Made by a program: the position numbers and the translations under genes. The notes under the pieces were generated by a model that was given only the letters and a program-made list of their open reading frames with translations, searched no databases and was not told the origin of the DNA. This document shows, piece after piece, positions 9,621-55,361 of a stretch of DNA of 64,000 bases. The first letter of the stretch is position 1; each line of letters starts with the position of its first letter. Source of the stretch: Eledone cirrhosa (Eukaryota); contig OZ024741.1 in the NCBI GenBank assembly GCA_964016885.1, forward strand, positions 223,696,001 to 223,760,000, in the 5' to 3' direction.

Positions 9621-9639
9621 ATGGTGGTGATATTGGTTG

Positions 9640-21600: not shown

Positions 21601-24600
21601 ATATATGGTGATAGTGGAGGTGGTGGTGGTGGTGACAATGATGGTATGTATATGGTGATAGTGGAGGTGGTGGTGACAATGATGGTATATATATGGTGAT
21701 AGTGGAGGTGGTGGTGGTGGTGACAATGATGGTATGTATATGGTGATAGTGGAGGTGGTGGAGGTGGTGGTGACAATGATGGTATATATATGGTGATAGT
21801 GGAGGTGGTGGAGGTGGTGACAATGATGGTATATATATGGTGGTGGTGGAGGTGGTGGTGGTAGTGACAATGATGGTTTATATATGGTGATAGTGGAGGT
21901 GGTGGAGGTGGTGACAATGATGGTATATATATGGTGGTGGTGGAGGTGGTGGAGGTGGTGACAATGATGGTATATATATGGTGATAGTGGAGGTGGTGGT
22001 GGTGGTGACAATGATGGTATATATATGGTGGTGGTGGTGGTGGTGGTGGTGGTGACAATGATGGTATGTATATGGTGATAGTGGAGGTGGTGGTGGTGGT
22101 GGTGACAATGATGGTATATATATGGTGATAGTGGAGGTGGTGGAGGTGGTGACAATGATGGTATGTATATGGTGATAGTGGAGGTGGTGGAGGTGTTGAC
22201 AATGATGGTATGTATATGGTGATAGTGGAGGTGGTGGTGGTGGTGACAATGATGGTATGTATATGGTGATAGTGGAGATGGTGGAGGTGGTGACAATGAT
22301 GGTATGTATATGGTGGAGGTGGTGGTGGTGGTGACAATGATGGTATATATATGGTGATAGTGGAGGTGGTGGAGGTGGTGACAATGATGGTATATATATG
22401 GTGGTGGTGGAGGTGGTGGTGGTGGTGACAATGATGGTTTATATATGGTGATAGTGTAGGTGGTGACAATGATGGTATATATATGGTGGTGGTGGAGGTG
22501 GTGGTGGTGGTGACAATGATGGTATATATATGGTGGTGGTGGAGGTGGTGACAATGATGGTATATATATGGTGATAGTGGAGGTAGTGGAGGTGGTGGTG
22601 ACAATGATGGTATTTATATGGTGATAGTGGAGGTGGTGGTGGTGGTGGTGACAATGATGGTATATATATGGTGATAGTGGAGGTGGTGGAGGTGGTGACA
22701 ATGATGGTATATATATGGTGATAGTGGAGGTGGTGGAGGTGGTGACAATGATGGTATATATATGGTGGTGGTGGAGGTGGTGACAATGATGGTATATATA
22801 TGGTGATAGTGGAGGTGGTGGTGGTGGTGACAATGATGTTATGTATATGGTGGTGGTGGAGGTGGTGGTGGTGGTGACAATGGTGGTATGTATATGGTGA
22901 TAGTGGAGGTGGTGGAGGTGGTGACAATGATGGTATGTATATGGTGATAGTGGAGGTGGTGGTGGAGGTGGTGACAATGATGGTATATATATGGTGATAG
23001 TGGAGGTGGTGGTGGTGGTGACAATCATGGTATGTATATGGTGGTGGTGGAGGTGGTGGCAATGATGGTATGTATATGGTGGTGGTGGAGGTGGTGGAGG
23101 TGGTGACAATGATGGTATATATATGGTGATAGTGGAGGTGGTGGTGGTGGTGACAATGATGGTATGTATATGGTGATAGTGGAGGTGGTGACAATGATGG
23201 TATATATATGGTGATAGTGGAGGTGGTGGAGGTGGTGACAATGATGGTATATATATGGTGATAGTGGAGGTGGAGGTGGTGACAATCATGGTATATATAT
23301 GGTGGTGGTGGTGGTGACAATGATGGTATATATATGATGATAGTGGAGGTGGTGGTGGTGGTGACAATGATGGTATATATATGGTGATAGTGGAGGTGGT
23401 GGAGGTGGTGTTGGTGACAATGATGGTATATATATGGTGATAGTGGAGGTGGTGGAGGTGGTGACAATGATGGTATATATATGGTGATAGTGGAGGTGGT
23501 GGTGGTGGTGACAATGATGGTATGTATATGGTGATAGTGGAGGTGGTGGAGGTGGTGGTGGTGGTGACAATGATGGTATATATATGGTGGTGGTGACAAT
23601 GATGGTATGTATATGGTGATAGTGGAGGTGGTGGAGGTGGTGGTGGTGGTGACAATGATGGTATATATATGGTGATAGTGGAGGTGGTGGAGGTGGTGAC
23701 AATGATGGTATGTATATGGTGATAGTGGAGGTGGTGGTGGTGGTGACAATGATGGTATATATATGGTGGTGGTGGAGGTGGTGGTGGTGGTGACAATGAT
23801 GGTATGTATATGGTGATAGTGGAGGTGGTGGTGGTGGTGACAATGATGGTATATATATGGTGATAGTGGAGGTGGTGGAGGTGGTGACAATGATGGTATA
23901 TATATGGTGATAGTGGAGGTGGTGACAATGATGGTATATATATGGTGATAGTGGAGGTGGTGACAATGATGGTATGTATATGGTGATAGTGGAGGTGGTG
24001 GAGGTGGTGACAATGATGGTATATATATGGTGGTGGTGGTGGTGGTGACAATGATGGTATATATATGATGATAGTGGAGGTGGTGGTGGTGGTGACAATG
24101 ATGGTATATATATGGTGATAGTGGAGGTGGTGGAGGTGGTGACAATGATGGTATATATATGGTGATGGTGGAGGTGGTGGAGGTGATGACAATGATGGTA
24201 TATATATGGTGATAGTGGAGGTGGTGGAGGTGGTGACAATGATGGTATATATATGGTGATAGTGGAGGTGGTGGAGGTGGTGACAATGATGGTATATATA
24301 TGGTGATAGTGGAGGTGGTGGAGGTGGTGACAATGATGGTATATATATGGTGATAGTGGAGGTGGTGGAGGTGGTGACAATGATGGTATATATATGGTGA
24401 TAGTGGAGGTGGTGGTGGTGGTGACAATGATGGTATATATATGGTGGTGGTGGTGTTGACAATGACGGTATGTATATGGTGATTGTGGAGGTGGTGGAGG
24501 TGGTGACAATGATGGTATATATATGGTGATGGTGGAGGTGGTGGAGCTGGTGACAATGATGGTATATATATGGTGATAGTGGAGGTGGTGGAGGTGGTGA

Positions 24601-24765
24601 CAATGATGGTATGTATATGGTGATAGTGGAGGTGGTGGTGGTGGTGACAATGATGGTATATATATATATATGGTGGTGGTGGTGGAGGTGGTGGAGGTGG
24701 TGACAATGATGGTATATATATGGTGGTGGTGGAGGTGGTGGTGGTGGTGACAATGATGGTATGTA
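9640..24765. repeat. Minisatellite B: GACAATGATGGTATRTATATGGTGATAGTGGAG(GTG/GAG)n, mostly 40-58 bp units, ~15 kb
   Basis: Roughly 300 tandem units; variant markers recur in multi-kb blocks. Confidence 0.98.
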
Positions 24766-24935: not shown

Positions 24936-25442
24936 GTTTCTACTTTTGGCACAAGGCCAGCAATTACCCCAGTGCATTACTGGTACTTTATTTTATCGAC
25001 CCCGTAAGGATGAAAGGCAAAGTTAACCTCAGCAGGACTTGAACGTAAAGTGCCGGAACTCAATGCCAATCTACCGCCTCAATCTAATAATTGTTTCTAC
25101 TTTTGGCACAAGGCCAGCAATTCCCCCAGTGCATTACTGGTACTTTATTTTATCGACCCCATAAGGATGAAAGGCAAGGTTAACCTCAGCAGGATTTGAA
25201 CTTAGAACGTAAAGTGCCGTAACTCAATGCCAATCTACCGCCTCAATCTAATAATTGTTTCTACTTTTGGCACAAGGCCAGCAATTACCCCAGTGCATTA
25301 CTGGTACTTTATTTTATCGACCTCGTAAGGATGAAAGGCAAAGTTATCCTTGGCGGGATTTGAACTCAGGTCATAAAGGGCCGTAACTCTATCTGCAAAA
25401 CATGGCGTCTGACTCTCTAACGATACTGCCAATCCACCGCCC
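24936..25442 (-). mobile_element. Three head-to-tail copies of tRNA-type SINE family B
   Basis: Units start at 24936, 25093 and 25257; minus strand has A/B-box-like GGCAGTATCGTTAG and GAGTTCAAATCC plus TTTGCCTTTCATCCTT..GGTCGATAAAATAAAGTACC core. Confidence 0.85.
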
Positions 25443-25537
25443 TGGTAGTATTAATGGTGGGTTTATTGGTGTTAATGATGATAGAGGTTGTATTGAAGCT
25501 GCACCTGCTTTTATGGTGGTGGTAGTAGTGGTGTTAA

Positions 25538-25754
25538 CCTTTTAGCATTTAAACCGGCCGTATCCGTCCAGAATTCTCTCACCTCTTTCTGTTCAACTTG
25601 GCCATAACCGGCCTGTCTTACTTATGTTAAGGTATTATTCTCAAAATAAATAATATCAAAATCTCATAGATTTGATATTATATGAGATATATGAGAGAAA
25701 GCCTTTACTATGGAAATACAATAGTAAATATAGAGTAATGTAAATGATAAAGGG
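25538..25754. mobile_element. piggyBac-type MITE, copy 1
   Basis: TTAA-CCTTTTAGCATTTA...TAAATGATAAAGGG-TAA; homologous to 26734-26941. Confidence 0.7.
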
Positions 25755-25839
25755 TAATGTTTATGATTGTTAATGGTGGTGGTGGTAGGGTTTAGAACTA
25801 TTAATGTTAAATTTATTTTTATTTTTTTTTATTGGTTTG

Positions 25840-26330
25840 ATCTGGAGGATGATGATGAGCAGGAGGAGGCGGAGTAGGATATAGATACGGGTGGTAGAGG
25901 GTATGGTGGTGGTGGTGTTGGAAGTGGCTTTTCTTTAAAATTTTCCTTTTCTCTCATGTTAAAGGTAGTTGTAATTGCGGTAATAGTAGTGGTGGTGGAA
26001 GTAGGGTAGTAATGACAGTGACAGTGATGGTGGTGGTAGCGGTGGTGGCGGTAGTAGTGATGGTGGTGGCGGTGGCGGTGGCGGTGATGGTGGTGGCGGC
26101 GGCCGCAGAGGTAGGGACGTTTACCAATATACAATAAATTTAGTAATGCTTAAAGTTGACAAGCAATTTATCTTCATTGTATTTTAAATAGACAGGTAGT
26201 GGTGGTAGTAGATGGGGGGGGGTGAAGTGTGGGAGGAGACACAAGATGGGGGTGAGGGAGAGATAGGAAGAGAAAGATGGATGAGAGGAAAAAAGGGTAG
26301 TGGTGGTGGTAGAAAGAGATAGAATATATA
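25840..26330. repeat. GGT/GGA-rich low-complexity tract
   Basis: Direct inspection. Confidence 0.7.
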
Positions 26331-26733
26331 TTTATATAAGAGAGAGAGGTGGGGAAATATTAAAGAAAAGTACCAGTGTTGCTACTACTACTACTGTTGC
26401 TAACATCTTTATTATGTCTTCCACACATCCCAATAGAATAACACAGCCACAAGTTTCTTCCCTTTGATTTTCACAAGCAATTTGTTTCCAACCCAAATTT
26501 CCCAATTCTCCAGTAGTTCATGGCTACTTCTGGCTGTTTGTTTGAATGTTTGACAAAATATTATAATGAAAGAAATTATTTTATTTATTTCAGTCATTAG
26601 ACTTCAGCCATGCTGGGGCTTCACTGTAATTTAGTTAATCATATCTGCCATAACCATGTGATTCACCTAAAAAATTTTAAACACATTCTATTGATATCTG
26701 CCATAAATTCTTGAACAAACTAAATTTGTTTAA

Positions 26734-26941
26734 CCCTTTAGTATTTAAACCAGCTGTATACAGTCAGAATTCTCTCACCTCTTCCTGTTCAAACTGGCCA
26801 TAACCGGCCCCTCATACTGATGTTATAGTATTGTTCTCAAAATAAATAACATCAAAATCTCATAGATTCAATATTATGTGAGGTAAAGCCTTTACTGTAA
26901 AAATACAATAGTAGATATAGAGTAATGTAAAAGCTAAAGGG
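26734..26941. mobile_element. piggyBac-type MITE, copy 2
   Basis: TIR CCCTTTAG/CTAAAGGG flanked by TTAA on both sides (26730-26733, 26942-26945). Confidence 0.78.
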
Positions 26942-26984
26942 TTAAGTCCATTGAAAACTTGCTCAAGAAAGGGTCGGAAGAATT

Positions 26985-27330
26985 TTTCAGTTGTGCCATA
27001 GACATGACAACCTTCTTAGCATTGAGGACGTACACAATAAACACACCCAGTACAATCTGTAAAGTGGTTGGTGATAGGAAGGACATCCATCTGTGAAAAC
27101 ATGTCAAACAAAGGGTCGGGAGGACTCATTAGTTGTGTTTAGTACATGACAACTTTCCTAGTGCTAATACCATGATAAAATGCACTCAGTAGAGTAGGAT
27201 CATATGTCGCCACCCTCGCCCACCCTCCAAGTAACTTGAAGGTCTGTGGCTCCACTTGACTCATTCTGTGATGACACATAACTCTTGCTAACAGGGAAAA
27301 TGGACATTAAATGATCATGATGATGGTGAT
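26985..27330 (+). mobile_element. Degenerate SINE/RTE-tail module with internal duplication
   Basis: GTGGTTGGTGATAGGAAGGACATCC; ends CTTGCTAACAGGGAAAATGGACATTAAATGATCATGATG; related to 32695-32950. Confidence 0.6.
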
Positions 27331-27554
27331 TGCATATCTCTTTGTTTCTCTGCTGTGACTGCCTGAACTAACTAAAATTCTTCAGACATACCTTACGCAC
27401 TATATATCGCCATTCTACTGATGTCTGTCACAATCATTTTTGTTTTTTTTAAATAATATAATTTTAGCACACAGTATCAAGCCTATACGGTGCATGTTGG
27501 AGATCAGCTTCCTACGAGTTAAGTAGCACCATGATATCTGCAAATTCCACTCAA

Positions 27555-27778
27555 CTGGAAAAAATTGCTGGATAGATTTTATGGGCAAAGCCAACTGATA
27601 GGAGACTCAGAGGTAAACTACAAGCAAGATGGTTGCATATCTATGAGCTTGGTTAGTCTTATTTTGGGATCCATTCGGATCAATTGGAAATAGTTGCTTC
27701 TGATAGGACTCTCTGGAAGGAGTGTCTGAGGATTCTTCCCCCATGACCTTCCCAGGAATAAGTGAGTGAAGAAGATAA
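27555..27778 (+). mobile_element. Decayed Expander/Rex3-like RTE 3' fragment
   Basis: ATTTTATGGGCAAAGCCAACTG..GAGCTTGGTTAGTC..GGATCAATTGGAAAT homologous to 42704-42990. Confidence 0.7.
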
Positions 27779-27862
27779 AATTTTATTGTACCTAAATACA
27801 ATTTATATCATGAATAAAATTATGTAAATATATACAATATTAAAAAAAGAAAAAAGGGGAAA

Positions 27863-27910
27863 TATCATCATCATCATCGTTTGTCGTCTATCTTCCACGC
27901 TAGCATGGGA
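27863..27910 (-). mobile_element. Short RTE 3' tail
   Basis: (ATC)n-GTTTGTCGTCTATCTTCCACGCTAGCATGGG, reverse complement of the LINE tail. Confidence 0.7.
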
Positions 27911-28939
27911 AATAATAAGGATGAAAAAAAAGGAGGGTAATAAAGAAGAAAAAATGGTGGGTGAAGACCTGCACACTCAATTACATAACACAACACAAGG
28001 GGCAAGCCAACACATTCACAGCATTGCAAGGCTAAGGCATTGTAATAACCAAGCACCAATGGCGAATCATCTCTTTATAATTAAATTTGTTCAAATATCT
28101 GCTTTGTTTGCTTCTCTTCTGCCAAAAACACTGAACAAATGAAATACTTTCACACAGACTCTTTGATTAGTCTTTATCACACATGCAATCATCAGAAGAA
28201 GCCTTGGTACAGTTGGTTGCCCATCACAATTGGAGCTTGCTGGCCTTGACCATGGTGATGGCTAATGCCCCAACAAGATAACCCTTTTCCTTTTCGAAGG
28301 AGGTAATTCTCTAATCTGGTACGCACATGCTATGATACATTCTCTGCCTCCAACCTTGTTGCTTCAGACACAAACCTGGGCACTGCTCCCTTTAACTTGA
28401 AGGAGAGGAAGATAGACAAATACTAGGATTTGACCAACTGCTTCCTTTTCGTGTCTGTCCTCAGTTCTTGAAATGCCGTCTTTCTCTGTAAAATTGAGAG
28501 GAGTGCATCCTGACCAAGGAGGGGGCCTTGTAAAGTTGAGTGGCTGATGCAGCAGGTGTCATTAGCTGTTCTCCGTGGTAATGTTTTTGCCATTTTGTCT
28601 GTGGTGAACACCACCTAGACAGGATGTAGTCTATTTCTTTCTCCCCTTTCCTTTCCCTTTCACCATTTAAATTCTTTTGTCTTTTTCATTTTTTACTGCA
28701 AACATAATTTAATTGAAATTTGTTGAATAAATCTTTATAATCTATATATTTCACAAATATTTACCAAAATAATTGGACAGTTCCAAACAAATTTCTTCAA
28801 ACACTGTATTCTCCACATCTTTCGCCACCTTAATAACTTAACCCTTTCTGGTCGTATTTCTTATGAAATACACCATATTTCAATTATTGAAGAATTTTGC
28901 GGGATTTACTAAAATAGTAAGTTAACATGTTGTTCTTAT

Positions 28940-29122
28940 ATAAAATTGTGTGTATGTGTGTAATTGTTTGTATGTGTGTTTGTGTGCTTGTGAGAGTGCG
29001 AATGTATGTTTATATGTGTGTGCATTGTGTGTATGTATGCAAGTTTGTATTTGAGTATATATGTGTATGAGTGTGTGTGTGGGAGGGTTATTCTATTTGT
29101 GTATGTGCATATATGTATGTAC
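28940..29122. repeat. Degenerate (TG)n microsatellite
   Basis: Direct inspection. Confidence 0.7.
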
Positions 29123-30511
29123 ATTAGGGTGTTTCATATTTAAAGGGAACATTTTTTGTGGGAATCACCTTATGTCGAATCCATTTTACATAAAAATTAT
29201 ACAAGGAGATATGAATATATTTAAGGGTTAAGTTTGGTGCATTTTTAATTCTATACCAAAAAATGCAAAAAGTTTACATTTGTTGATTGTAGCCAGGCTG
29301 CTGATTTTGTCTATTTTTCCCTGTGTACATGCAGGAGACATTTCTACCATTTATAGGATTCTAAATAAAAAAAGAAATGAACTATAAACGTCTTCAAGAT
29401 CTTTTTCCCATCATCTGGTCCCAGTATGCTAATGTTCAAAAAGTTCCAGGAATGTTGGGACTCATCGATAAATCTTATTATTAAACTATCTTGGCTGAAG
29501 ATGAGCCCATGGAAGATTTTTGCAGGAAAAAGAGGGAAGAGATGGTTGAATATCTATTGACTGTACTGTTTTCTGGAGATCATTTCTGAGAAGACTTTAT
29601 CTTGGTGGTTGGCCATCTCCTCAGTTTTCCTTGTTAATCCCAGAATACCACCAGGCTCATTGGATAGCTAAGATCATATATGTGATCAAGATAGTTCTGT
29701 TCAAAGAACAACTTAAGCTTACACTTCATGAGTTGAGCGATCTAGAAAAAGTCATTTCCGGTTCATTCATAAAAAGTGTTTCTCTATTGTGTATTTAGAA
29801 CATATTCCTCCTGCTTATTTTCATTTCATTGCATTCTGTTGTATGGTTTCCTCATTGGATTCAGTAAAGTGAACAGAATGACAATAATCCACTGGCCAGG
29901 TCCCAAAAGTACCATTATAACTAAAAGATGTGAAAGTGTGCAACCTTTTAAATATTACTCAATTGACCTATAATTCAGCATACATCGTTTATTATGCCCA
30001 TGTGTTGATAAATTGACATGAGATGATAGGCAAATATTTTGCAAAATGGAGCACCCTAGTGTGTGTAAAGGTGTGAAGTGGTGGTGATGGGGGGATATGT
30101 GTGTAGGTGTGTTTGTGTATAATATAAAGATGTGGGTGATGAGTGAAGTGTTGGAAACCTCCACTAAAGAAACTACAATTAAGTTACTCTTCTAAATGTA
30201 TCTGTTTTAATGTCTGTGTGACTGGGACGGGAGGGAGAAGGTATATTACTGTCTATTTTAAGAAACTGTGTTCTGTTTTTATAGTTAACTATGCAGTAAG
30301 TAGAGTGGAGTGTATTGCCTAAGGTGAGATTTTATAGTAATATCTATTTAGACAAAGATAAATGTTTGTTTATATATATATGTGTGTGTGTTCTTTTTTT
30401 TTTTCTGTGTTTTGTTACCTTTTAGCTGAGCCAACTAAATTAGAGAAACTTGCCTAAAGCAACATTATTTTCACAGTTGTTAAATTTAGTTTAGGTTTAT
30501 ATGTCAGTATA

Positions 30512-30847
30512 TCATCATCATTCATCATCATCATCATTTCATTTTAAGTCCGCTTTTCCCTGCTTGCAAGGGGGGGACTGGAACTGATTCTGGCTTGATT
30601 TCTACAGCTGGATGCCCTTCCTAACACCAACCTCATTTACAGTGAGTGCTGGGTGCTTTTTTGCCGTGGCACCTCCATGACCACTTTGCAGTGGAATGAT
30701 ATGGACCCCAGTCCCTATCATCTCATTTCTACAGCTGAGTAAACTGGAGCAATGTGAAATAAAGTGTCTTGCTCAAGGAAACAACACATCACCTGGTCTG
30801 AGAATTGAACTCACAACCTTTCAATTGCAAGGCCAATGCTCTAACCA

Positions 30848-30850
<3 letters not shown>
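30512..30850 (-). mobile_element. tRNA-derived SINE family A with RTE-type tail
   Basis: Reverse complement of 32285-32603. Confidence 0.9.
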
Positions 30851-30897
<47 letters not shown>

Positions 30898-31019
30898 GTA
30901 TGTATGTCAGGTCACCAGTTGGTATGTATGTATGTATGTATATACACACACACACATATATACACATATATATATACAAAGTGTTAAAACGATCAAATTT
31001 TAGTTTAGAACATTTATTT

Positions 31020-31064
31020 GCTGACAATTGTTTCTTCCAGAGGGAGGTCTGGAATCATCGGAGC
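31020..31064 (-). ncRNA. Minimal type I hammerhead ribozyme motif (U4C variant)
   Basis: Minus strand: GCU-CCGAUGA-UUCCAGA(ccuccc)UCUGGAA-GAAA-CAAUUG-UC-AGC; 7 bp stem II, palindromic stem III ACAAUUGU, GUC cleavage triplet, 3 bp stem I. Confidence 0.72.
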
Positions 31065-31159
31065 TTAGTACTTAGTACTACCCTCCATATTTATAGTTGT
31101 ATTAAACATATATGAATATAAATATTCTTATTACTATATATATATATATATATATATAT

Positions 31160-31649
31160 TTCGTTTCTGAATTTGTTTAGCAAGATTCTTTATCTGAAAT
31201 CGTGTGTTGAAACCGATATTGTTATACTTTGGGAAGGTCATGTTGCCAATAAGAAACACACGCACCAGTTGCTTTCACTTCAATTTATTATTATAATAAA
31301 TTTATAATAAATTTATAAATTTATAAATTTCTGGTTGGTTGGTTGGTTCCACAACCAGATAGTTGTTTATATATTGTCATATAAACAAAATGGCGTAGGA
31401 CAGAACAAAGGAGAGGCACAGAAACAAAGAAAGGAATCCCCAGTCACTGAAGAGGTCACAGAGTGTGTGACGAAAGAACTATGACAATATATAAACAACT
31501 ATCTGGTTGTGGAACCAACCAACCAACCAACCAGAAATTTATAAATTTATAAATTTATTATAAATTTATTATAATAATAAATTGAAGTGAAAGCAACTGG
31601 TGCATGTGTTTCTTATTGGCAACATGACCCTCCCAAAGTATAACAATAT
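31160..31649. mobile_element. TA-flanked fold-back element (Penelope-like pseudo-LTR remnant?)
   Basis: Arms 31216-31381 and 31480-31649 are near-perfect inverted repeats; the 98 bp spacer holds a hammerhead core. Confidence 0.7.
31443..31485 (+). ncRNA. Minimal type I hammerhead ribozyme motif
   Basis: GUCA-CUGAAGA-G-GUCACA(gagug)UGUGAC-GAAA-GAAC-UA-UGAC; stem I GUCA/UGAC, 6 bp stem II. Confidence 0.72.
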
Positions 31650-31675
31650 ATATATATATATATATATATATCTTA

Positions 31676-31903
31676 TGATCATAATGTTGTGGGTTCAATT
31701 CCTGGGCTAGGTTGCGTGTTGTGTTCTTGAGCAAAACACTTCATTTCACGTTGCTCCAGTATACTCAGCTGAAAATGAGTACCAGCAATAACAGGGAGTT
31801 TAACATTACGCTGGACTGGCGTCCTGTCCAGTGGGGAGTCTTGTACTCTCAGTCGCTTCACGCTATGAAACCGGGATAAGCACCAGCCTGATGAACCTCT
31901 GAC
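31676..31903 (+). mobile_element. tRNA-type SINE family C (CORE-like plus V-like domain)
   Basis: B box GGTTCAATTCC; GTGTTCTTGAGCAAAACACTT; GGACTGGCGTCCTGTCCAG..GTCGCTTCACGCTATGAAACCGGGATAAGC. Confidence 0.75.
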
Positions 31904-31922
31904 TATATATATATATATATAT

Positions 31923-32257
31923 GGAAAAAAGATGAAATCGAAAATACAACTGGAGTTTTTTTTTTTTAAATATATATTTATTTGGTTCCTTTACCGTTTT
32001 CGCAGTTCTTCTGCTTTTCAAAAGCAGAATTGAGATGGAGGGTTTGTGGTTTTTCTCGAGAAAAACCACAAACCCTCCGTCTCAATTCTGCTTTTGAAAA
32101 GCAGAAGAACTGCGAAAACGGTAAAGGAACCAAATAAATATATATTTAAAAAAAAAAAACTCCAGTTGTATTTTCGATTTCATCTTTAACCTTATACTTT
32201 CACTCGTGTAGGACATCTCGTTTTTTTTTCATTTTGTAAAAAAAACACCACTTTCTA
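31923..32257. mobile_element. TA-flanked element with a 260 bp spacer-less palindrome and a degenerate hammerhead
   Basis: 31928-32057 is the reverse complement of 32058-32187 (one mismatch), centred on CTCGAG; 32091-32127 reads CUU-UUGAAAA-GCAG(aagaa)CUGC-GAAA-ACGG-UA-AAG. Confidence 0.7.
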
Positions 32258-32271
32258 ATATATATATATAT

Positions 32272-32603
32272 GGAGGCACATGGCTTAGTGGTTAGAGCAT
32301 TGGCCTTGCAATCGAAGGGTTGTGAGTTCAATTCTCAGACCGGGTGATGTGTTGTTTCCTTGAACAAGACACTTTATTTCACATTGCTCCAGTTTACTCA
32401 GCTGTAGAAATGAGATGATAGGGACTGGGGTCCATATCATTCCACTGCAAAGTGGTCGTGGAGCTGCCACGGCAAAAAAGCACCCAGCACTCACTGTAAA
32501 TGAGGTTGGTGTTAGGAAGGGCATCCAGCTGTAGAAATCAAGCCAGAATCAGTTCCCGTCCCACCCTTGCAAGCAGGGAAAAGCGGACGTAAAATGATGA
32601 TGT
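32272..32603 (+). mobile_element. Apparently full-length tRNA-derived SINE family A with RTE-type tail
   Basis: A box TGGCTTAGTGG, B box GAGTTCAATTC, CORE-like TTCCTTGAACAAGACACTTTA; tail ACCCTTGCAAGCAGGGAAAAGCGGACGTAAAATGATGATG identical to the LINE end at 37091-37130. Confidence 0.92.
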
Positions 32604-32694
32604 TGATTTACTTTCTTCCACATCTGAGGAGCGTTTTGGTTATGGTAGTTTAATAAAATGTTTGGTGTCATGTTTATATGATAAAAAGGACTCT

Positions 32695-32950
32695 TCAGTT
32701 GTGCCAAGGAAATGACCACCTTCCTAGTGCTGGTGCCATGATAAAATGCACTTGGTACACTCTGTAAAATAGCTGGTGATAGGAAAGGTTTTCAGCTGTG
32801 GAAACCATGCCAAAGCCAGAACGTAGGTAAGCAAGATGGAGACACTGTTTCACTTGGGAGGACAGTAGGTCTGATTCAGTACTGATTTGGTCTGGGATGA
32901 CCTGTCCAACACATGTCAGCATAGAAAAAAATTGGACATTAAATTATCAT
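32695..32950 (+). mobile_element. Degenerate SINE/RTE-tail module
   Basis: GTGCTGGTGCCATGATAAAATGCAC..CTGTCCAACACATGTCAGCATAGAAA..GGACATTAAA. Confidence 0.6.
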
Positions 32951-33318
32951 GTGCGGTATCATGTCTATATGTTGTACCTTTTCCATATCTAAACTACAAG
33001 GTAATATAATATAGTGTGTAGCATTGTATGCGCTACTTTCTCCACATCTGAGGTATGTAGAGTGTCTTGCCTAAGGTGATATAATATTGTGTACAATATT
33101 GTATCTATAAATTTTATTTTCACCACATCTGTGTTAAGTAGAGTGTCTTGACTAAGGTGATATAATATAGTTAGTATTGTATCTATATAACCATGCCTGT
33201 ACTTATAGTCATGACTACCATCTGTAAAAGTTTATAGCCATGCTTGTGCCTCTAGCTGTACATATAAGTGCCATGGCTGTGCCTATTTAATGCAATTCCT
33301 TTATATGAATTTATATAA

Positions 33319-34679
33319 TACTAGCAGTGGTACGGGATAAGGTATTTTGGAACGCGGGCAGCCAACAGACCTAATCGTGGAAAAACTGCATGCCTGGACA
33401 ATATGTAAAGAAAATAAACCGAATACTCTGATGGCTGGATAATCTTTAAGATTTTCCTCGATGAAGCAGGAAAAATGCAGGTTTTCACCTAGGGGATCAA
33501 GAAAATAAAATTTTTTTATGTGCATAATATGCCTTGAAATTTCGGGAAAATCGGCTAGATGTAACGCCTCAAAAACCCTAAAAAGCTGAAAAAATGAAGT
33601 TTTTCACCTAATGTGGGCCCTAGTCCATAAAAAAGTTGGATTTTCTTTGCTTACGGTATGAAGAAGAGACTGACTAATACATAGTTACAATTTCAAGGAA
33701 GGGGTCTGACCTAACGCCTCAAAAAAACCCTAAAAAGCTGGGGAAAAAACGCAGTTTTTCACCTAATGCAGGCCCTAGGAGATCAAAAAGTTGAATTTTT
33801 TATGTGCATAACATAAGTAATATACATGTAAAGTTTGAAAAACGTCGGTTGGGTACTTCTCGAGTTTTAGGGATTCAAACTCACAGACACACACACACAC
33901 ACACAGACAGACATCCTCAGGGAAGTGACGTAATGCACAGACAGGCAGACATACAGACAGATATTATAAGGGCGCGACGTTATATGTATGTATCTATCTA
34001 AAAAGAGAAAGACTAAGAATTATAGAGAGAGATCGCCTAATGCGTTCCCTAGGGCATTGAAAATTTGAAATTCTTTTTGCTCAGAACACTCTCTGAAACA
34101 TAAGTATTACATGTGTAAAGTTTGAAAACAGTCGGTTGGGTACTTCTCTAGTTTTAGGGATTCAAACTCACACACACACACAGGCATCCTTACTTTTAAT
34201 ATCTCCTAGGACAAGCATTAGGTGAAAAACTGCGTTTTTTTAAGCTTTTTAGGTTTTTTTTGAGGCGTTACATCAGACTGATTTCCTTGAAATTGTAACT
34301 ATGTATTAGTCAGTCTCTTCTTCATTCCATGAGCAAAGAAAATCCAACTTTTTATGACCTAGGGCTCGCATTAGGTGAAAAACTTCATTTTTTCAGCTTT
34401 TTTGAGGCGTTACATCTAGCCGATTTTCCCGAAATTTCAAGGCATATTATGCATATAAAAAAAATTCATTTTCTTGATCCCCTAGGGCCCGCATTAGGTG
34501 AAAACCTGCATTTTTCCTACTTCGTCGAGTAAAATCTTAAAGATTATCCAGCGATCAGAGTATTAGGTTTATTTTCTTTACATATTGTCCAGGCATGCAG
34601 TTTTTCCACGATTAGGTCTGTTGGCGGCCCGTGTTCCAAAATACCTTATCCCGTGCAACGCCGGGTACCACTGCTAGTA
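33319..34679. mobile_element. Long fold-back non-autonomous DNA element (Helentron/DINE-1-like ends, or MITE with ~465 bp TIRs)
   Basis: Arms 33319-33783 and 34201-34679 are inverted; terminus TACTAGCAGTGGTACCCGGCGTTGCACGGG; spacer has two copies of AAAGTTTGAAAA..GTCGGTTGGGTACTTCT..GATTCAAACT(CA)n. Confidence 0.75.
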
Positions 34680-37132
34680 ACCTATAAATCAGGCGAGCAC
34701 ATAGGCCAAATTGACTTCCTGCTAGTTAGACAGCAAGACAGACAGATCGTGTCAAATACTAAGGCATACTCCACAGCATAAGTTAGTCATTAGTGACATC
34801 TCAGTAAGCAAGAGAAAGAATGAGACATACAGGAAGGTGTGAAAAAAAAGAAAGGTCTGGAAGCTAAAAGACCTTTCATTAAAATATAAATTTAGCAAAG
34901 CCCTTCAAGATGTGTATGACGAAAAAGAAGACGATTTAGAGTTGTATGACATAGATGATAACTGGAATTTCTTGCGTGACAACTTACTGCAGGCTACTGA
35001 AGAAACTTGTGGCTAGGGCAGAGCTTCAACCAGACAGAGAGTGACCTGGTGGTGGAACAGCACAGTAGATAGAGCCATTAGAGACAAAAGACTGGCATGG
35101 AAGGCTTGGAAAAATGGTGGGATTAGAGAAGGATACACAGCCGCTAAGAGAGAAGCTAGACGTCAGGTGTACTTAGCACGCAGGGAGGCTGAGAGTAGGA
35201 GGTTTGCCAATGTTCTGCGACGGGAAGATCAGAGGCGTGCGGTGTTCCACATTGCAAGGCAGTGTGTCAGTGCGAATCAGGATGTTGTTGGAGATAAATG
35301 TGTCCGGAATGATGCCGGTGTATTTAGTGCCACAAATGATCAAAAAAAGGAAGCCTGGAAATGTCATTATGAGAGGCTGATGAATGTGGAGAACGAATGA
35401 GAGAGAGAGAAATTACTCCCGGTAGACCCGACAGAGGGACCAGCTATTGAGATTGACGAATATAGGGTACAAGAGGCAATTAAGGAAATGAAGAATGGTA
35501 AGGCTGCTGGACCGTCGGGGATAGTTGCTAAGATGCTGAAGGCATCAGGAGAAGTAGGCACTAAACTGGTTGCAAGCATCATCAATCAAGCTATATATGG
35601 TAGTGTCATACCCAAAGACTGGTGCAGCAATATTCTCATAAATTGCTATAAAGGTAAAGGGGATGCTCTGGAGAGGAGCAATTATAGGGGCATAAAGCTG
35701 ATGGATCAGGTTATGAAAGTGGCAGAGAGAATATTAGCGCAACTCATTAGAGAAAGGGTCAAATTTGATGAGATGCAGTTTGGTTTTGTGCCTGGGAAAA
35801 GTACAACAGATGCCCTCTTCTTAGTGAGACAACTACAAGAGAGGTTCTTAGAGAAGAATAAGCCACTATACTTAGCTTTTGATGACCTAGGGAAGGCCTT
35901 TGACAGGGTACCCCAATCTGTCATCTGGTGGTCTCTAAGGAAACTAGGTGTAGAGGAATGGCTTGTGAGGGACAGTGCAAGCTATGTACAGAGGTACTGT
36001 CAGTAAAGTGAGAGTAGGAATGTAGTTTAGTGAGGAATTCCAGATACAAGTAGGTGTACATCAGGGTTCGGTCCTCAGCCCGCACTTGTTCATTATAGTC
36101 CTCCAAGCCATAACAGAGGAGTTTAAGACTGGATGCCCATGGGAACTTCTCTATGCTGATGATCTGGTTCTTATAGCAGAATCAGTAGAGGAGCTTAGAG
36201 AATAAATTCTGGCTATGGAAACAGCAGTTGGAATTAAGAGGACTGAGAGTGAACATAGCTAAGACAAAAGTGTTGATAAGTAGAAAAGAGGACAAAACTC
36301 TGATTCCATCAGGGAAATGGCCATATTCGATATGTAGAAAAGGAACTGGCATAAATTCCATAAAATGTCCCAATGCAGATCTTGGGTACACAAGAGATGT
36401 AGTGGGATAGCAGGCAAACTAACAGGTAGGGAAAACTAAGTATGCAGTAGATGTACAAGGAAAGTTGGCAGTAGTAATCGCAGTGATAGACACATTTTTC
36501 CAATGCAGGTGGGTTCTATAGAAGTTGTTGATAGCTTCTGGTACCTAGGTGATCAGATTAGCATGGGAAGGGGGCGGGGGTCCGAGGCCATAGTATCTAG
36601 AATAAGGACGGGTTGAAAGAAATTTAGGGAGCTGCTTCCTCTGTTGACAAAGAAGCGCTCCTCCCTGTGTACGAAAGGACGGTTGTATGATGCCTGTGTG
36701 AGATGCACGATGCTGCATGGTAGCGAGACATGGGCAGCAACTGCAGAGGATATGCAACGGCTGGAGAGAAATGAAACAAGCATGCTCCGTTGGATGTGCA
36801 ATGTCAATGTGCGTGAACGACCAAGCATAGACGAGTTGAGAAAGAAACTGGGTATAAGAGGGATAAGTTGTGGTGTGCAGGAGAGAAAACTGAGATGGTA
36901 TGGACATGTGATACGCATGGAGGATGACCACTGGGTAAAGAAGTGCCAAGAAATCCCAGTAGAAGGAAGACACAATAGAAAAACATGGGCGGAGGTGGTG
37001 AGAGCAGACTTCAGATCGCTGAAACTCACAGAGGAGATGACAAAGGAACGTAACAAGTGGAGAGATGCTGTGCTAAATAGGACCCATCCGACCCTTGCAA
37101 GCAGGGAAAAGCGGACGTAAAATGATGATGAG
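34680..37132 (+). mobile_element. 5'-truncated, decayed RTE-clade LINE (end of APE endonuclease, RT, PHD-like finger)
   Basis: YKSGEHIGQIDFLL; KAAGPSG; KGKGDALERSNYRGIKL; QFGF; DLGKAFDRV; YADD at 36152-36163; LRWYGHV; (GAT)n tail; several stops and frameshifts. Confidence 0.96.
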
Positions 37133-37202
37133 GATATTATCTCAGATGTTTAACCATGCCACATGCAACTACATCAGAGAGATAGTTTTGAGATTTATAA
37201 AA

Positions 37203-37330
37203 CGGCAAATTGGCAGAGTTGTTAGAAGTTTGGATAGAATGCTTTGTGGTATTTGTTCAGGCTCTCTGTTAAAATCCTTCCAAGGTTAACTCTGTCTATC
37301 ATACTTTCAGGGTTGATAAAAAAAACGTAC
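37203..37330 (+). mobile_element. Degenerate SINE family B
   Basis: GGCAAATTGGCAGAGTTGTTAGA..CATACTTTCAGGGTTGATAAAA. Confidence 0.55.
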
Positions 37331-38401
37331 CTCTCTTTCTCTCTCTCTGGCAGTAAACAAATATGTTCAAACCTGGAGAAAGTATGGGCTCCACCAAGTA
37401 TAAAATGCCCAAGTTATGCTGTATGTCACTAATGCACTCCCTCACTATGATTTCATCAGGAGTTATAGATCCATACAAACCCAAACTGTAAAAGTACATA
37501 TAGCAAACAGAGCTGAATGCTTTCTTCATTACTGCATTGATATCACATTGAATAATGGAGGTTAGAAGACACAACATTATCTAATGTCTGTTCAAATTGG
37601 AAAATAGCTGGATATTTGATCATGGATTGTATCTAGAAGGAAACAAAATGTTTGCATCATTAGAAAATATCAAAAATAGAATTGGTTCAGTATCTTCAAC
37701 ATTTGGTCTCTGTAATTGATGTTTGAAAAGAGTAGAACACCTCGTTACACACACAAAAATCTACATTTATCAATCATCTGTATTGCGTGTGTTGTTTTAT
37801 AGTAGTGAATCATAGACATTAACTTACAAGGTTACTTGAATATGTTCTCAGTCTCTCTTTCAAATGGGATACATACAGCAAATTATCAAAATATTACAGA
37901 TTAAACCTTTGTAGAATGATCTCACACAACAAATTTGTTTCTTGTCAGTTGATCATTTTTGCCAGAATGGAAGAGTGAATGTAAAATGTTGATGATGATG
38001 ATAATCTATTCACATAGAAACTATAATATGACAGCTGCAGCCTGATAACGTCAGTCTTCCTCATACCAGTAATTGGAATACGTTGGTTGTTGTTTTACTG
38101 GGAGGCTTTGGGGTATTCTTTTGAAGGACATGTTTGAATTTAATTTGACTTGTGCAGTATGTGTATGGTGGGTGGTGTTAATTGTAGGATTATGATTTGT
38201 ATTTGCTTGAGTTCGTGGATAGCATGGGTCTGGTTTAGATTTGTTTATGTTCTAGTTAAGGCAAATGATGATCCTAGTTATATATAATGTACTTGATTAT
38301 AAATTTGTACAAATCACAGCTGACTTTGACCTAAACAACAGCAGCAACAATAATTATACATATAAATTCTAAATCCCATATCTGTGTTGATCAGTGAAAT
38401 G

Positions 38402-38915
38402 TAACCCTTTAGATACAAACCCACTCACAATTGCTTCAGACTATGAAATAAAATACCAATTTTAAAGGTTTACTATTTAAAGTAAAACCTTCCAACATAA
38501 TTTCTTGTTTTATCTAAGAACATTTTTTATGTTACAAATGCCATCTTAATGAGGTAAATAGTTTGAGTAAATTTCTCTAAATCATTCATTAATTAATTAA
38601 AATACCAAGTATCAAATTAGAAATAATTTAATACTTGGTATCAAATTATAATATGGTCGTGTAGGTATCATGACAAAAAGCACCCAGTCCACACACACTG
38701 TGAAGTGGTCATGTAGGTGTCATGACTACAAGCACGCAGCACACACTGTAAATGTGGTTGGCATTAGGAAGGGCATCCAGCTGTAAAAATCTAGTCAGAA
38801 ACAGTTTCTGTATGGTCACCGAACTTTCCTCATATGGGACATCCTGTCTAACCTATGTTAGCGTGGAAAGTGGACATTAAACGATGATGATGATAATGAT
38901 TAACGAAAGGGTTAA
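38402..38915. mobile_element. Possible TTAA-type MITE carrying an RTE 3' tail insert (38655-38900, +)
   Basis: TAACCCTTT...AAAGGGTTAA ends; internal GTGGTTGGCATTAGGAAGGGCATCCAG..GGACATTAAACG(ATG)n. Confidence 0.5.
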
Positions 38916-39723
38916 AAAAAAGATTAGAAAGAAAATAGGGAAAATGCTAAAGCAGTTTTTGCAAGAAAATTAGTGGTTTCCACCATAATGATACACCAAG
39001 TGTATTTGTACAATAATTATATTTTTCTCCCCAAACTACCAAAACACATATATTTGTATGTGTTACAATTTATGTACGTTATGTTTATCACATATCAAAG
39101 TTTTTTGGTTGATATTTGATAATAACAGCTAAACTAATCACTACAACTAAATTGACCAAATTTGCCCCTCCCCTTCAGAAATGCTTCCACCACCCCTGTT
39201 ATGTATATATCTCCATCAGTAGCTCTTTAAAATTTACACACACAAACACATAATGCATTTCCTATATCAAGTCATGTGTTACAATAAATTCACTTTCTGT
39301 ATATCATTTGTACATGTGTGCAAATTTATGTAATTATATTTCAGAAATAAATTATTACAATATTATTTTTATCTTTAATCACTACCATGTGTCAGTAACT
39401 AACATAAACTATAGGGTTTTTCTTATGCAAACCATAAATTTATCAAAGCACAAATTTCCCAGTTTATATGATTGTTCATATATCCAGTAATCCTGACATA
39501 TGAATCCTGCACTTGAAAAATTAAATATATTCAACATTATTGCCTTCTTTATTGATAGCATGTGTCCACTAGTGTTATATAAAAACTATGTTAAGTTAGT
39601 AACTTAGCAATGAAATAATTAATGATATTAGTAAATCTCTGAAAATTACTCATAAATTAATTGAAATAGACTGTATTTCATTCAAAAATAAGTCATGGAA
39701 AGGCTTAAGAAGTTTGAGTGTTC

Positions 39724-39983
39724 CACAGATGGGGAATCTGTGGCTATAAGGCCACATGCAGCCTTCTATGCCATTCTGTGTGGCTTTTGAAAGATTAAAA
39801 AATTTCCAACAAATTTTTAATTTTTATTAATATGTTTTAATTTAAACCATAAGATGAACGTATTTTCAATACTAAAATAATGTAAATTTTAAGAATATAT
39901 AATTATGGTTTTTTGAATGCATCCTTATTATATTACAAGTAACTTAATGCAGCCTTTCAACATGAAAAGGTTCTCCACCTCTG
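39724..39983. mobile_element. hAT/Charlie-type MITE (old)
   Basis: Imperfect TIRs CACAGATGGGGAATCT / AGGTTCTCCACCTCTG (12 of 16 match); no TSD seen. Confidence 0.55.
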
Positions 39984-40116
39984 ATATAGCACTTTCAACA
40001 ACTATAACACTTTTGTTAACATATTTCTAATGACATACTCTGTATTTTAATTAATTAATTATTTCATTATTATGATAGTGTTTATAAAAGGGGTCGGCAA
40101 CCTTTTGGGGTGTGTG

Positions 40117-41780
40117 GGCCACATAGCTATGTAGTGTCTTGTCAGCAGGCCACACAGCTATGTAGTGTCTTGTCAGCAGGCCACATACCTATATAGTGTC
40201 TTGTCAGCAGGCCATATAGCTATGTAGTGTCTTGTCAGCAGGCCATATAGCTATGTAGTGTCTTGTCAGCAGGCCATATAGCTATGTAGTGTCTTGTCAG
40301 CAGGCCACATAGCTATGTAGTGTCTTGTCAGCAGGCCACACAGCTATGTAGTGTCTTGTCAGCAGGCCACACAGCTATGTAGTGTCTTGTCAGCAGGCCA
40401 CACAGCTATGTAGTGTCTTGTCAGCAGGCCACACAGCTATGTAGTGTCTTGTCAGCAGGCCACACAGCTATGTAGTGTCTTGTCAGCAGGCCACATAGCT
40501 ATGTAGTGTCTTGTCAGCAGGCCACACAGCTATGTAGTGTCTTGTCAGCAGGCCACATACCTATGTAGTGTCTTGTCAGCAGGCCATATAGCTATGTAGT
40601 CTTTTGTCAGCAGGCCACACAGCTATGTAGTGTCTTGTCAGCAGGCCATATAGCTATGTAGTGTCTTGTCAGCAGGCCACACAGCTATGTAGTGTCTTGT
40701 CAGCAGGCCATATAGCTATGTAGTGTCTTGTCAGCAGGCCATATAGCTATGTAGTGTCTTGTCAGCAGGCCATATAGCTATGTAGTGTCTTGTCAGCAGG
40801 CCACACAGCTATGTAGTGTCTTGTCAGCAGGCCACACAGCTATGTAGTGTCTTGTCAGCAGGCCATATAGCTATGTAGTGTCTTGTCAGCAGGCCACACA
40901 GCTATGTAGTGTCTTGTCAGCAGGCCATATAGCTATGTAGTGTCTTGTCAGCAGGCCATATAGCTATGTAGTGTCTTGTCAGCAGGCCATATAGCTATGT
41001 AGTGTTTTGTCAGCAGGCCACACAGCTATGTAGTGTCTTGTCAGCAGGCCACATAGCTATGTAGTGTCTTGTCAGCAGGCCACACAGCTATGTAGTGTCT
41101 TGTCAGCAGGCCACATACCTATGTAGTGTCTTGTCAGCAGGCCATATAGCTATGTAGTCTTTTGTCAGCAGGCCACACAGCTATGTAGTGTCTTGTCAGC
41201 AGGCCATATAGCTATGTAGTGTCTTGTCAGCAGGCCACACAGCTATGTAGTGTCTTGTCAGCAGGCCATATAGCTATGTAGTGTCTTGTCAGCAGGCCAT
41301 ATAGCTATGTAGTGTCTTGTCAGCAGGCCATATAGCTATGTAGTGTCTTGTCAGCAGGCCACACAGCTATGTAGTGTCTTGTCAGCAGGCCACACAGCTA
41401 TGTAGTGTCTTGTCAGCAGGCCATATAGCTATGTAGTGTCTTGTCAGCAGGCCACACAGCTATGTAGTGTCTTGTCAGCAGGCCATATAGCTATGTAGTG
41501 TCTTGTCAGCAGGCCATATAGCTATGTAGTGTCTTGTCAGCAGGCCATATAGCTATGTAGTGTTTTGTCAGCAGGCCACACAGCTATGTAGTGTCTTGTC
41601 AGCAGGCCACACAGCTATGTAGTGTCTTGTCAGCAGGCCATATAGCTATGTAGTGTCTTGACAGCAGGCCATATAGCTATGTAGTGTCTTGTCAGCAGGC
41701 CATATAGCTATGTAGTGTCTTGTCAGCAGGCCATATAGCTATGTAGTGTCTTGTCAGCAGGCCACATAGCTATGCAGTGT
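40117..41780. repeat. 31 bp minisatellite GGCCAYAYAGCTATGTAGTGTCTTGTCAGCA, ~53 copies, just inside a hAT-like terminus (40089-40106)
   Basis: Exact 31 bp period; preceded by AGGGGTCGGCAACCTTTT. Confidence 0.97.
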
Positions 41781-42465
41781 TTCGTTGGAGGGCCATGATA
41801 TCAAATAAGTAATGAGAACATATATAAAAACCAATACAGTAATATGATAAAATACTATGATATTTTTAATAAACTGTGACAAAACCACGATACCTGGCAG
41901 TGTATTTAGATCAGGGTTGCTATTTGTTTGATAAAAAAATTGACTTCTAATAATACTGAACACTATTTTAGACTAGTTTGTTTTTTTTGTTTTTTTTATT
42001 TTATAATTTTTCAGATTCCTGTATAATTCTATCTGCGCTTGCTTTCTAGCTAGCCTATTTCATCCACACTCCTTAGAATTTGCTGTATAGAATTTACTTT
42101 TAACGCTTGACCAGCTTCACCCACTCCCTCATTGTTCTACAGGCAAGTTCAGCTCCCCTCTATCCACCGACATGAAAGAGTTAACTGTGTTTACAAGAAA
42201 CTTCGACCAATCCTTTTGAAATACCTGATTATCGCATGCCCATATATGGAATTACCCCTTAAAAGCTCGGCTATTTCATTACCATGCTAAAAATTGAATT
42301 TAGTCAAGAAATAGCTGTCAAAACGGATTGAGCTCTGCCGTTGGGGTCCTGAACCTTTTCCTGTTACCCACTCAACTACCCAAAGTATTGAGTACTCTGG
42401 TGCATTATGGTTCACCTCATTCCTTACAACACTTTCTTTCTTATATATATATATGTATATATCAT

Positions 42466-42608
42466 TCCACGGCAAAAAAGCACCCAGCACTCACTGTAAA
42501 TGAGGTTGGTGTTAGGAAGGGCATCCAGCTGTAGAAATCAAGCCAGAAACAGTTCCCGTCCCACCCTTACAAGCAGGGAAAAGCAAATGTAAATTGATGA
42601 TTATGATG
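42466..42608 (+). mobile_element. 5'-truncated SINE family A
   Basis: CCACGGCAAAAAAGCACCCAGC..AAGCAGGGAAAAGC..(GAT)n. Confidence 0.88.
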
Positions 42609-42703
42609 ATATATATATATATATATATATATGCATACATACATTTGTAACATAACTTAAAAGGTTTTTATATAAAATTATGTTGGAAGGTTATAATTAA
42701 AAT

Positions 42704-42990
42704 TAGAGCCGCTACTTCTCCGAATTGACAGATCACAGCTCCAATCCTACGGGCATGTGGTTAGAATGTCTCAGGAAAGAATCACTGGACATATTTTATG
42801 GGCAAAACCAACCGGCAAGAGACCCAGGGGTAGACCCCAAGCAAGATAGTTGGATAACATCCATGAGCTTGGCTGGTCACGCTTGGGGATCCAGCCAGAT
42901 CAGTTGGAGATGATTGCTTTTGACAGGACCCACTGGTGTTTGAGGACTCTGTCCCCGGAACCCTCTCAGAAGTAAGTGCACGAAGAATAT
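42704..42990 (+). mobile_element. 5'-truncated Expander/Rex3-like RTE 3' end with 15 bp TSD
   Basis: EPLLLRIDRSQL..GHVVRM..KPTGKRPRGRP; GGTTATAATTAAAAT at 42689-42703 and 42991-43005. Confidence 0.88.
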
Positions 42991-48383: not shown

Positions 48384-48489
48384 GAGTTTTTCTCTTCTCA
48401 CAGATCCATCCAAGAATGTTTCTCTTTGTCCTTCTTTTATCGTCTGCAACCAATCTTGACTTCATTATCAGTCATTTGTCTCACCACCA

Positions 48490-50400: not shown

Positions 50401-50639
50401 TTATATATATATATATTTAAACACTGTAAATGTTTATTCATATATATATATATACAAAACACTTCTCTTTCCTTTTACCCGTAGTTGACTCAATAAGCAG
50501 TGTTTTAAACTTCTATTTATGCCAGTCTAGAATTCAAATTCTGTTTTTCTCTCGGATTTTCAATTAATATTTTACATGTTTTTAATAATATGTCTCATTC
50601 TATTGGACCCTTCCTAAAAACTAACCTTCTAGTATTATT

Positions 50640-54775: not shown

Positions 54776-55110
54776 TAAATAGATACGACATACCTTTCAA
54801 TCACCTTGCATTTGGGAGGTTGATTTGGTAGTCAAATCAACCAAATCAACCTCCCAAATGCAAGGTGATTGAAAGGTATGTCGTATCTATTTATTTATAA
54901 GACTGTTTATATTGTATTTTGTCTGAAGATGGCATAACATATTGTTAATATGATATCCCTGAAATATATATAACGAAATAAATATGGTTTTATAAATATA
55001 GTTTCCATTTATTTAATATCATAAATATACTCCAAATACTTGTTGAGTGCTTTTATATCAGTTATAAATATTTACTCGTTGTTAACCCAACAATTTAAAT
55101 ATAACTTTCC
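54776..55110 (+). mobile_element. TA-flanked element with 5' hairpin and hammerhead (Penelope-like remnant?)
   Basis: Perfect 54 bp inverted arms 54776-54829 and 54840-54893; hammerhead motif downstream; (TA)n on both sides. Confidence 0.7.
54915..54980 (+). ncRNA. Type I hammerhead ribozyme motif
   Basis: UAUUUUGU-CUGAAGA-U-GGcAUAaCAUAUU(guu)AAUAUGaUAUcCC-U-GAAA-UAUAUA-UA-ACGAAAUA; 8 bp stem I with one G-U, palindromic stem III. Confidence 0.7.
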
Positions 55111-55361
55111 ATATATATATATATATATATATAATATATTTAGAAACACACAGATACATGCGGACACACACATATATACATGAATGCATCCGCACCCAAC
55201 TGTGAGTTAAGGGTGCCAACTTCACCGATGTTGCTCAATGAATGACTGGGACAGACCAATTCAGTTTGAACCAGACTGAACCAGTATCAGAGTTAAAAAT
55301 ACATTATGAAGAGAGAAGAAACATTTAGATATAATTAGTAATGAAATGTATCATACCTAAA

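Follow-up and report, generated by a model that had tools for sequence, protein, structure and literature searches.

Two-armed ends of Penelope-like elements with predicted hammerhead ribozymes at a (TA)n hotspot of Eledone cirrhosa

The islands analysed here lie in 64,000 nucleotides of Eledone cirrhosa DNA (contig OZ024741.1, positions 223,696,001 to 223,760,000 of the forward strand; hereafter the window), and they are very probably the 5'-truncated, two-armed pseudo-LTR ends of coding Penelope-like element (PLE) families, each ending in (TA)n and carrying a predicted hammerhead ribozyme. An earlier note on this DNA had taken them for non-coding mini-elements; each proved instead to be the truncated end of a coding PLE family. 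Since other copies continue upstream into sequence coding for reverse transcriptase (RT) and GIY-YIG endonuclease (EN), the islands are read as 5'-truncated, inverted PLE ends and not as non-coding retrozymes.

The four families, designated A-D, are new families of known PLE clades. Minimal hammerheads and the U3-A8 core have already been published, as have targeting of (TA)n, inversion of an arm and a tail that may or may not be present. The ribozyme finding is in itself ordinary, because PLE ends carry thousands of minimal hammerheads, and Hydra elements that target (TA)n and bear a hammerhead have already been listed for Octopus. What the present data add, of modest value, is a rule for the pairing of short (S) and long (L) ends, together with a single multi-turn insertion that has no ORF (L021/L192). 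The value is mechanistic, the transposition cycle of PLEs being still only partly worked out. The families are young and abundant here (family D has copies that are 100% identical, and family B an intact ORF), their S and L ends are sharply mapped, and the mapped ends give exact predictions for two-ended priming and for whether the hammerhead matters.

Structure of the islands

Every island is a head-to-head inverted pair bordered by (TA)n, the tracts that bound the arm ends lying at 30852-30895, 30967-30976, 31135-31158, 31647-31670, 31904-31921 and 32259-32270. Family A, a Hydra-type PLE, contributes an arm at 30977..31068 (-), which has the S end and holds the hammerhead, and an opposite arm at 31066..31134 (+), which consists of the distal part of the tail and has the L end. 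Family B, Nematis-like by the spacing of its EN linker, has an inverted arm (31159..31381, -) with the tail, the L end and the first 27 codons of the ORF, and a direct arm (31383..31646, +) with the S end and the ORF start codon (ATG) at 31624. Family C resembles Neptune by its motifs; its inverted arm (31923..32057, -) has the S end and a mirror hammerhead, and its direct arm (32058..32258, +) the tail, the L end and a hammerhead. Family D, again Hydra-type, lies elsewhere in the window, with a short inverted arm (54778..54836, -), whose end lies upstream of the hammerhead and coincides with neither S nor L, and a direct arm with tail and L end (54840..55111, +), of which there are many other copies that are 100% identical.

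The earlier note had proposed that several unrelated families with PLE-type minimal hammerheads, TA targeting and inverted 5' segments had gathered at one microsatellite, and the anatomy of arms and (TA)n tracts bore this out. The cluster is ordinary co-targeting, and the window is one of the denser cases of a common arrangement: among 117 fetched loci of 3 kb, 20 also contain an end from another of families A-D, and one contains ends from two others. An insertion would keep (TA)n on its two flanks, so that other families could later land in the same tract and stack there.

An unrelated piece lies between families B and C (31671..31903, +). It is 82% identical over 89 nt to the repeat that flanks the hotspot, had no second BLAST match in the window, and is, we assume, probably a SINE fragment. 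The flanking repeat itself forms an inverted pair around the TA hotspot (30539-30878 and 32258-32597, 95% identity), with its 5' ends towards the (TA)n; it is presumably a composite SINE-like element.

Full-length elements and clade assignment

BLAST of each island against the source genome (3.0 Gb) gave between 162 and 3114 first-look candidates per island, 40 of which were scored for each, so that every island is high-copy and not single-copy, in keeping with the element families proposed earlier. Copies reach variable points upstream, and the longest extend into coding sequence. The search upstream for an ORF with RT and GIY-YIG, which the earlier note had recommended, recovered the whole RT together with the EN for families B, C and D, and for family A the C-terminal part of the RT plus the EN. 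In family B, locus L227 holds a stop-free frame of 1240 codons (1229 from Met) that encodes RT, a CX4CxxC linker and GIY-YIG, and lies between two hammerhead ends 4.1 kb apart. The best relative of its protein is an RT-domain protein of Octopus vulgaris (68%), and some relatives carry Pfam RT or GIY-YIG marks. The tail leads straight into the 5' start in 22/22 family B copies fetched by that start, and an upstream hammerhead was found by exact pattern in 15 of the 22 copies that hold it. In family C, L138 has the RT, linker, EN, a UTR of about 1 kb and the hammerhead in one continuous stretch; among the matches listed, 16/19 have the hammerhead end downstream of the EN, and tandem units of ~4.3-4.5 kb occur in L216 and L218. 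A whole family D unit of 3.8 kb (L132; also L131) has the motifs RWR, DKT, CxCX5C, CxxC and CxH. The family C and D ORFs are interrupted by stops or frameshifts in the loci examined. Family A has a Hydra-type EN upstream in 8/30 loci, only this and the C-terminal part of the RT being recovered.

The full elements of B, C and D are arranged in tandem, with the 3' UTR, hammerhead and tail of one unit leading directly into the 5' end or the ORF of the unit that follows. A single ORF for RT and GIY-YIG, pseudo-LTRs in partial tandem, an inverted truncated arm, an optional tail and a hammerhead were all found, and this is the description of C-terminal EN+ PLEs. Pfam assigned no family to the B and D proteins, and RVT_1 to the C protein only below the cut-off. 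As to the window itself, the earlier statement that it has no RT or GIY-YIG ORF holds for the long ORFs near the cluster (25000-44000) and for tblastn of four PLE proteins against the window, which gave no match, but not for island B, which carries the first codons of the element's ORF.

The Hydra clade of C-terminal EN+ PLEs, which includes Hydra-1_Obim of Octopus bimaculoides, is marked by a CxCX5C linker, DKT, RWK, CxxC, CxH and a (TA)n target (Craig et al. 2021, PMC8557442). Families A and D share with it the CxCX5C linker, CxxC and CxH around E/N, insertion in (TA)n and a hammerhead; D also has DKT, with RWR in place of RWK, while for A the DKT/RWK region was not recovered. They differ in that the D unit is ~3.8 kb, against <3 kb for most of the listed families, that A has a long 3' UTR, and that their hammerhead sequences are not that of the listed Hydra-1_oBim motif, the proteins having been compared by motifs (PMC8557442). 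Neptune and Nematis have a CX2-5CxxC linker with a long or a reduced spacer, respectively, and their microsatellite bias has been attributed to the linker (PMC8557442). By eye, family C resembles the Neptune rows in Fig. S2 of that paper (DKG, CX4CxxC and a long spacer before GIY) and family B the Nematis rows (CX4CxxC and a short spacer), although B differs from both groups in having DKS and a 1229-aa ORF with an Asn-rich insert. Judged by these motifs, families A and D would be Hydra-type, C Neptune-like and B Nematis-like. The intact 1229-aa ORF of family B (L227 4086-7805, -) has its insert near the N-terminus, rich in Asn and Thr and resembling the Asn-rich inserts reported in rotifer PLEs.

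Retrozyme-like copies

A different reading would be that the islands are non-autonomous, non-coding elements akin to retrozymes, spread as short ribozyme RNAs or circles with PLE proteins supplied in trans. Many copies are indeed short, one derivative without an ORF exists (an internally deleted B unit of 498 nt, L021/L192), and animal retrozymes derived from PLE pseudo-LTRs are described in the available part of a 2026 preprint (Li, Clavereau and Pollet). However, the 5' boundaries of the short copies are scattered, as predicted by random truncation; the window arms are 88-100% identical to ORF-bearing copies; and the window islands are single or inverted ends, none of them a tandem of hammerhead units. 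The 498-nt deletion junction also occurs at one locus only, all three of the matches that have it among 40 scored (of 721 candidates) lying there. The retrozyme reading of the window islands is therefore largely refuted, and we consider it very improbable. Compared with the non-LTR retrozymes of that preprint, as far as its available text describes them, the islands have the same type I hammerhead of PLE origin but differ in not being tandem hammerhead units and in having coding parents.

The deleted B unit deserves a description of its own. L021 1-1762 and L192 (G000:C3, ~80.161-80.163 Mb) represent one insertion, with about two inverted and three direct turns of the 498-nt unit; there is a hammerhead motif in every turn (one with a core change), and the L and S ends lie in (TA)n. 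Non-coding tandem hammerhead units, by which retrozymes are recognized, are thus absent from the window islands and present in L021/L192, and this tandem fits the working definition in the available text of Li, Clavereau and Pollet (2026). It has the look of a rolling-circle product, or of a retrozyme in the making. That the 498-nt unit might form a dispersed B retrozyme family was considered and rejected, the junction having been found at this locus only. Another tandem array, with a 472-bp unit and partly inverted, occupies L139 1-3700; its unit has a minus-strand hammerhead motif with a palindromic stem III, which matches a motif cluster of seven matches, and it looks like a retrozyme.

Hammerhead ribozyme motifs

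The three motifs of the cluster, and a fourth near 54915, were recovered by sequence inspection and with descriptors exactly where the earlier note had placed them. Hammerhead A (31020..31065, -; core at 31061) has the core CCGAUGA (U4C) and a palindromic stem III, with the layout GCU-CCGAUGA-7-bp stem II-GAAA-CAAUUG-UC-AGC and a predicted cut at 31023/31022. Hammerhead B (31443..31485, +; core at 31447) has CUGAAGA and an unpaired G before stem II, the layout being GUCA-CUGAAGA-G-6-bp stem II-GAAA-GAAC-UA-UGAC and the predicted cut 31481/31482. Hammerhead C has the U3-A8 swap and the layout CUU-UUGAAAA-4-bp stem II-GAAA-ACGG-UA-AAG; it is present in the direct arm (32091-32126, +; core at 32094), with the stem III palindrome broken in the window copy, and as a mirror in the inverted arm (31989-32024, -; core at 32021). 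Hammerhead D (54915-54980, +; core at 54923) has an 8-bp stem I, a long irregular stem II and the stem III palindrome AUAUAUAU. All have a minimal type I core with stems I and II, the core being variant in A (U4C) and C (U3-A8). The core had been given earlier as CUGANGA or like it; a descriptor with strict CUGANGA finds B only. The claim of a palindromic stem III stands for A and D, where it is perfect, but not for the commonest form of B or for the window's copy of C.

Motifs so short call for comparison with shuffled sequence. A descriptor with a widened core (allowing U4C and U3-A8) gave 4 matches in the 64-kb window, all within 30900-32300. By comparison, 200 block shuffles of the window averaged 0.04 matches and never exceeded 2, and 2000 shuffles of the cluster produced a single match, in one shuffle. 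The descriptor was, however, broadened only after the U4C and U3-A8 cores had been seen, and strict CUGANGA retrieves B alone. With this post hoc descriptor, the excess over shuffled sequence that the earlier note had called for was found. Hammerhead D was detected with a looser descriptor, which recovers A, B and D but misses the window's C, and which, over 100 window shuffles, produced one or more matches in 32 and three or more in 1. A scan of 0.73 Mb of fetched loci, picked for holding families A-D, yielded 80 distinct matches, against 0-2 in three shuffles. A scan of the fetched loci (0.73 Mb) in which no palindrome was demanded gave 31 motif clusters, 14 of them in at least two loci, and among these 14 a Watson-Crick 3-8 pair is kept in 13 (11 C-G and 2 U-A) and a perfect stem III palindrome, varied in sequence, in 10. 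The covariation sought by the earlier note is accordingly present across families, in the 3-8 pair and in the varied palindromes; as a sequence pattern it points to selection on the hammerhead motif, and it fits the published model of cleavage as dimers.

It might be argued that AT-rich repeats match such motifs by chance, or that the palindromes are artefacts of assembly, given that the cores are degenerate, that the descriptor was broadened after the fact, and that an Rfam scan of the window returned no hammerhead family among the best 150 of 439 rows, only microRNA-type matches to repeats. Against this stand the shuffle counts for the window and, in loci chosen for these families, for the 0.73 Mb; the covarying 3-8 pairs and palindromes; and the arms, which are not identical in sequence and whose ends fall, in dozens of loci, at sites particular to each family. 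We regard this explanation as refuted and give it practically no credence.

Stem III is the least uniform part of the motifs. The palindrome is present in A, D and most copies of C (CCGG is kept in 31/39), and absent from B and from the window's C copy, so that stem III is weak or broken in two of the four window motifs. In the window's C copy two changes, carried by both arms, abolish the palindrome and are predicted to form a hairpin that buries the core, and for B the self-duplex of stem III is predicted to be unstable (+1.4 kcal/mol). Unconstrained co-folding of the motifs did not single out the stem III dimer in the predicted structures, except for A. Cleavage by the hammerheads of families A-D is a prediction. 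Since the inner end of the family B inverted arm lies at most 2 nt from the predicted cut, the arm boundaries were tested for a pile-up at cut sites; in a sample skewed by the queries, 3 of 130 5' boundaries (between -100 and +40 of the predicted cut) lay within 3 nt of it, and there was no pile-up.

The minimal hammerheads of metazoan PLE pseudo-LTRs have a short stem I, a long stem II, an unpaired base after A9 and a tiny palindromic stem III; the U3-A8 variant has been published, truncated copies mostly carry single motifs, and opposite-strand pairs occur 100-700 bp apart (Cervera and de la Pena 2014, PMC4209133, in its available text). The motifs studied here agree with that text in stem layout, in the U3-A8 variant, in the single motifs of truncated copies and in the opposite-strand pairs. 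They differ from what it describes in the U4C core of A, where the basal pair of stem II is U-A (A.G in a relative), in the long stem II of D-like families, whose fourth pair is repeatedly a C.Y mismatch, and in the missing stem III palindrome of B. A subtype with a long stem II was seen in at least eight clusters (L091, L160, L153, L167, L102, L052, L005 and L083); three variable pairs are followed by C opposite C or U and then a long helix, U always precedes GAAA, and stem III is a 6-nt palindrome or near-palindrome.

Terminal sites and the insertion mechanism

Two fixed 3' ends, S and L, characterize each family. They are separated by 128 nt in A, 60 nt in B, 68 nt in C and 90 nt in D, and the L end lies 137-220 nt downstream of the predicted hammerhead cut. 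(TA)n follows 212 of the 223 ends classed as S or L, 28 more ends being unclassed. When pairs were counted from classed ends followed by TA repeats, with re-fetched or duplicate loci merged, there were 64 two-armed insertions in which both ends were classed; 63 were L+S, one was L+L and none S+S. The selecting query touched neither end in 28 insertions, the window's own islands (3) among them, and 27 of these are L+S (p ~1e-7 versus 0.5). The tail-bearing arm may be either one, and the left arm of family D in the window is an unclassed exception to the rule of one S and one L. At all eight S and L sites TA, TTA or TGTA comes next in the native tandem unit, compared with 10-20% of positions, an overlap that is partly circular and post hoc because the ends were defined by where (TA)n begins. 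In L132 5530-5660 (family D), the sequences just after S and L are alike over ~35 nt, as if an RT start signal had been duplicated.

The two arms of an insertion also have minor letters in common: 61/109 in B (15.6 expected), 15/18 in D (1.8) and 15/45 in C (7.8), with 0/11 in A (0.5). This excess, seen in B, C and D but not in A, could also stem from gene conversion within the palindrome or from two RNAs of one source locus. With one S and one L end per insertion, and arms that share variants, the sequences suggest twin priming on one template, and the L+S pairing likely records how the enzyme starts copying.

It can be proposed that the GIY-YIG nuclease makes a cut in each strand of a (TA)n tract, by analogy with an Anolis PLE in vitro (PMC11167929, available text), and that the two free 3' ends would then prime reverse transcription internally on the element RNA, one at S and the other at L, probably aided by TA microhomology. 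Two prematurely ended cDNAs would join through microhomology to give the palindrome. The hammerhead would cut tandem transcripts to unit length, as a stem III dimer or with the help of protein, and seems dispensable for the insertion step itself.

The palindromes could alternatively arise without two primers, by fold-back self-priming (proposed in PMC3846280) or by later trimming by the EN at an internal TA site (PMC8557442), and in support of this the inversion junctions are palindromic or microhomologous, the arms have variants in common, and the S and L sites resemble the TA target, so that the nuclease could cut there. On the other side, the arms of small A insertions, the window's included, cover non-overlapping parts of the element (~1-95 and 140-220), which simple fold-back on one cDNA cannot produce, and in the available text of PMC11167929 the tail sits, in vitro, between two RT start sites. 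Fold-back alone is thereby ruled out for the small A insertions, and we judge this family of explanations unlikely overall, at perhaps one chance in a few.

For the Anolis Poseidon element PAc, the available text of Frangieh et al. (2024, PMC11167929) describes two internal RT start sites ~30-40 nt apart in vitro, not homologous to the target and with no strand difference, and a hammerhead that needed protein and was dispensable for insertion. Families A-D resemble PAc, as described there, in having an AT-rich target and a tail that is bounded by two internal start sites, proposed ones in A-D, and belongs to the 5' end or the ORF of the following unit; unlike those of PAc, their sites are separated by 60-128 nt and resemble TA, and each arm uses one of them. 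In the literature consulted, mostly open access, no counted L+S rule, no tails of 60-128 nt and no TA-like start sites were found. Returning to twin priming, its strongest form would be obligatory and asymmetric across three PLE clades: a protein dimer on one RNA would start at L for one strand and at S for the other, with TA microhomology, and leave exactly one tail, and small deleted units would be copied for several turns from a circle, as in L021/L192. We offer this tentatively and hold it somewhat less probable than its failure; if true, L021/L192 would be a retrozyme caught at birth.

Other repeats in the window

More inverted repeats lie by (TA)n tracts at 55824-56046, at 56238-56315, and at 50411-50454 with 55404-55447, and are possibly the ends of other PLE families. 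A foldback element of 1.3 kb (33327-34659) has long inverted arms (92-96%) made of internal subrepeats. Large satellites with units of 60, 47, 31 and 32 bp occupy 6900-24762, 40117-41780 and 44080-48384, and the satellites of the window show an extreme strand skew, with a GC skew of 0.9 over 8-24 kb. Broken fragments of a LINE-type reverse transcriptase, which we take to be RTE-like, are present at 35017-37120 (+) and are unrelated to the PLE ends.
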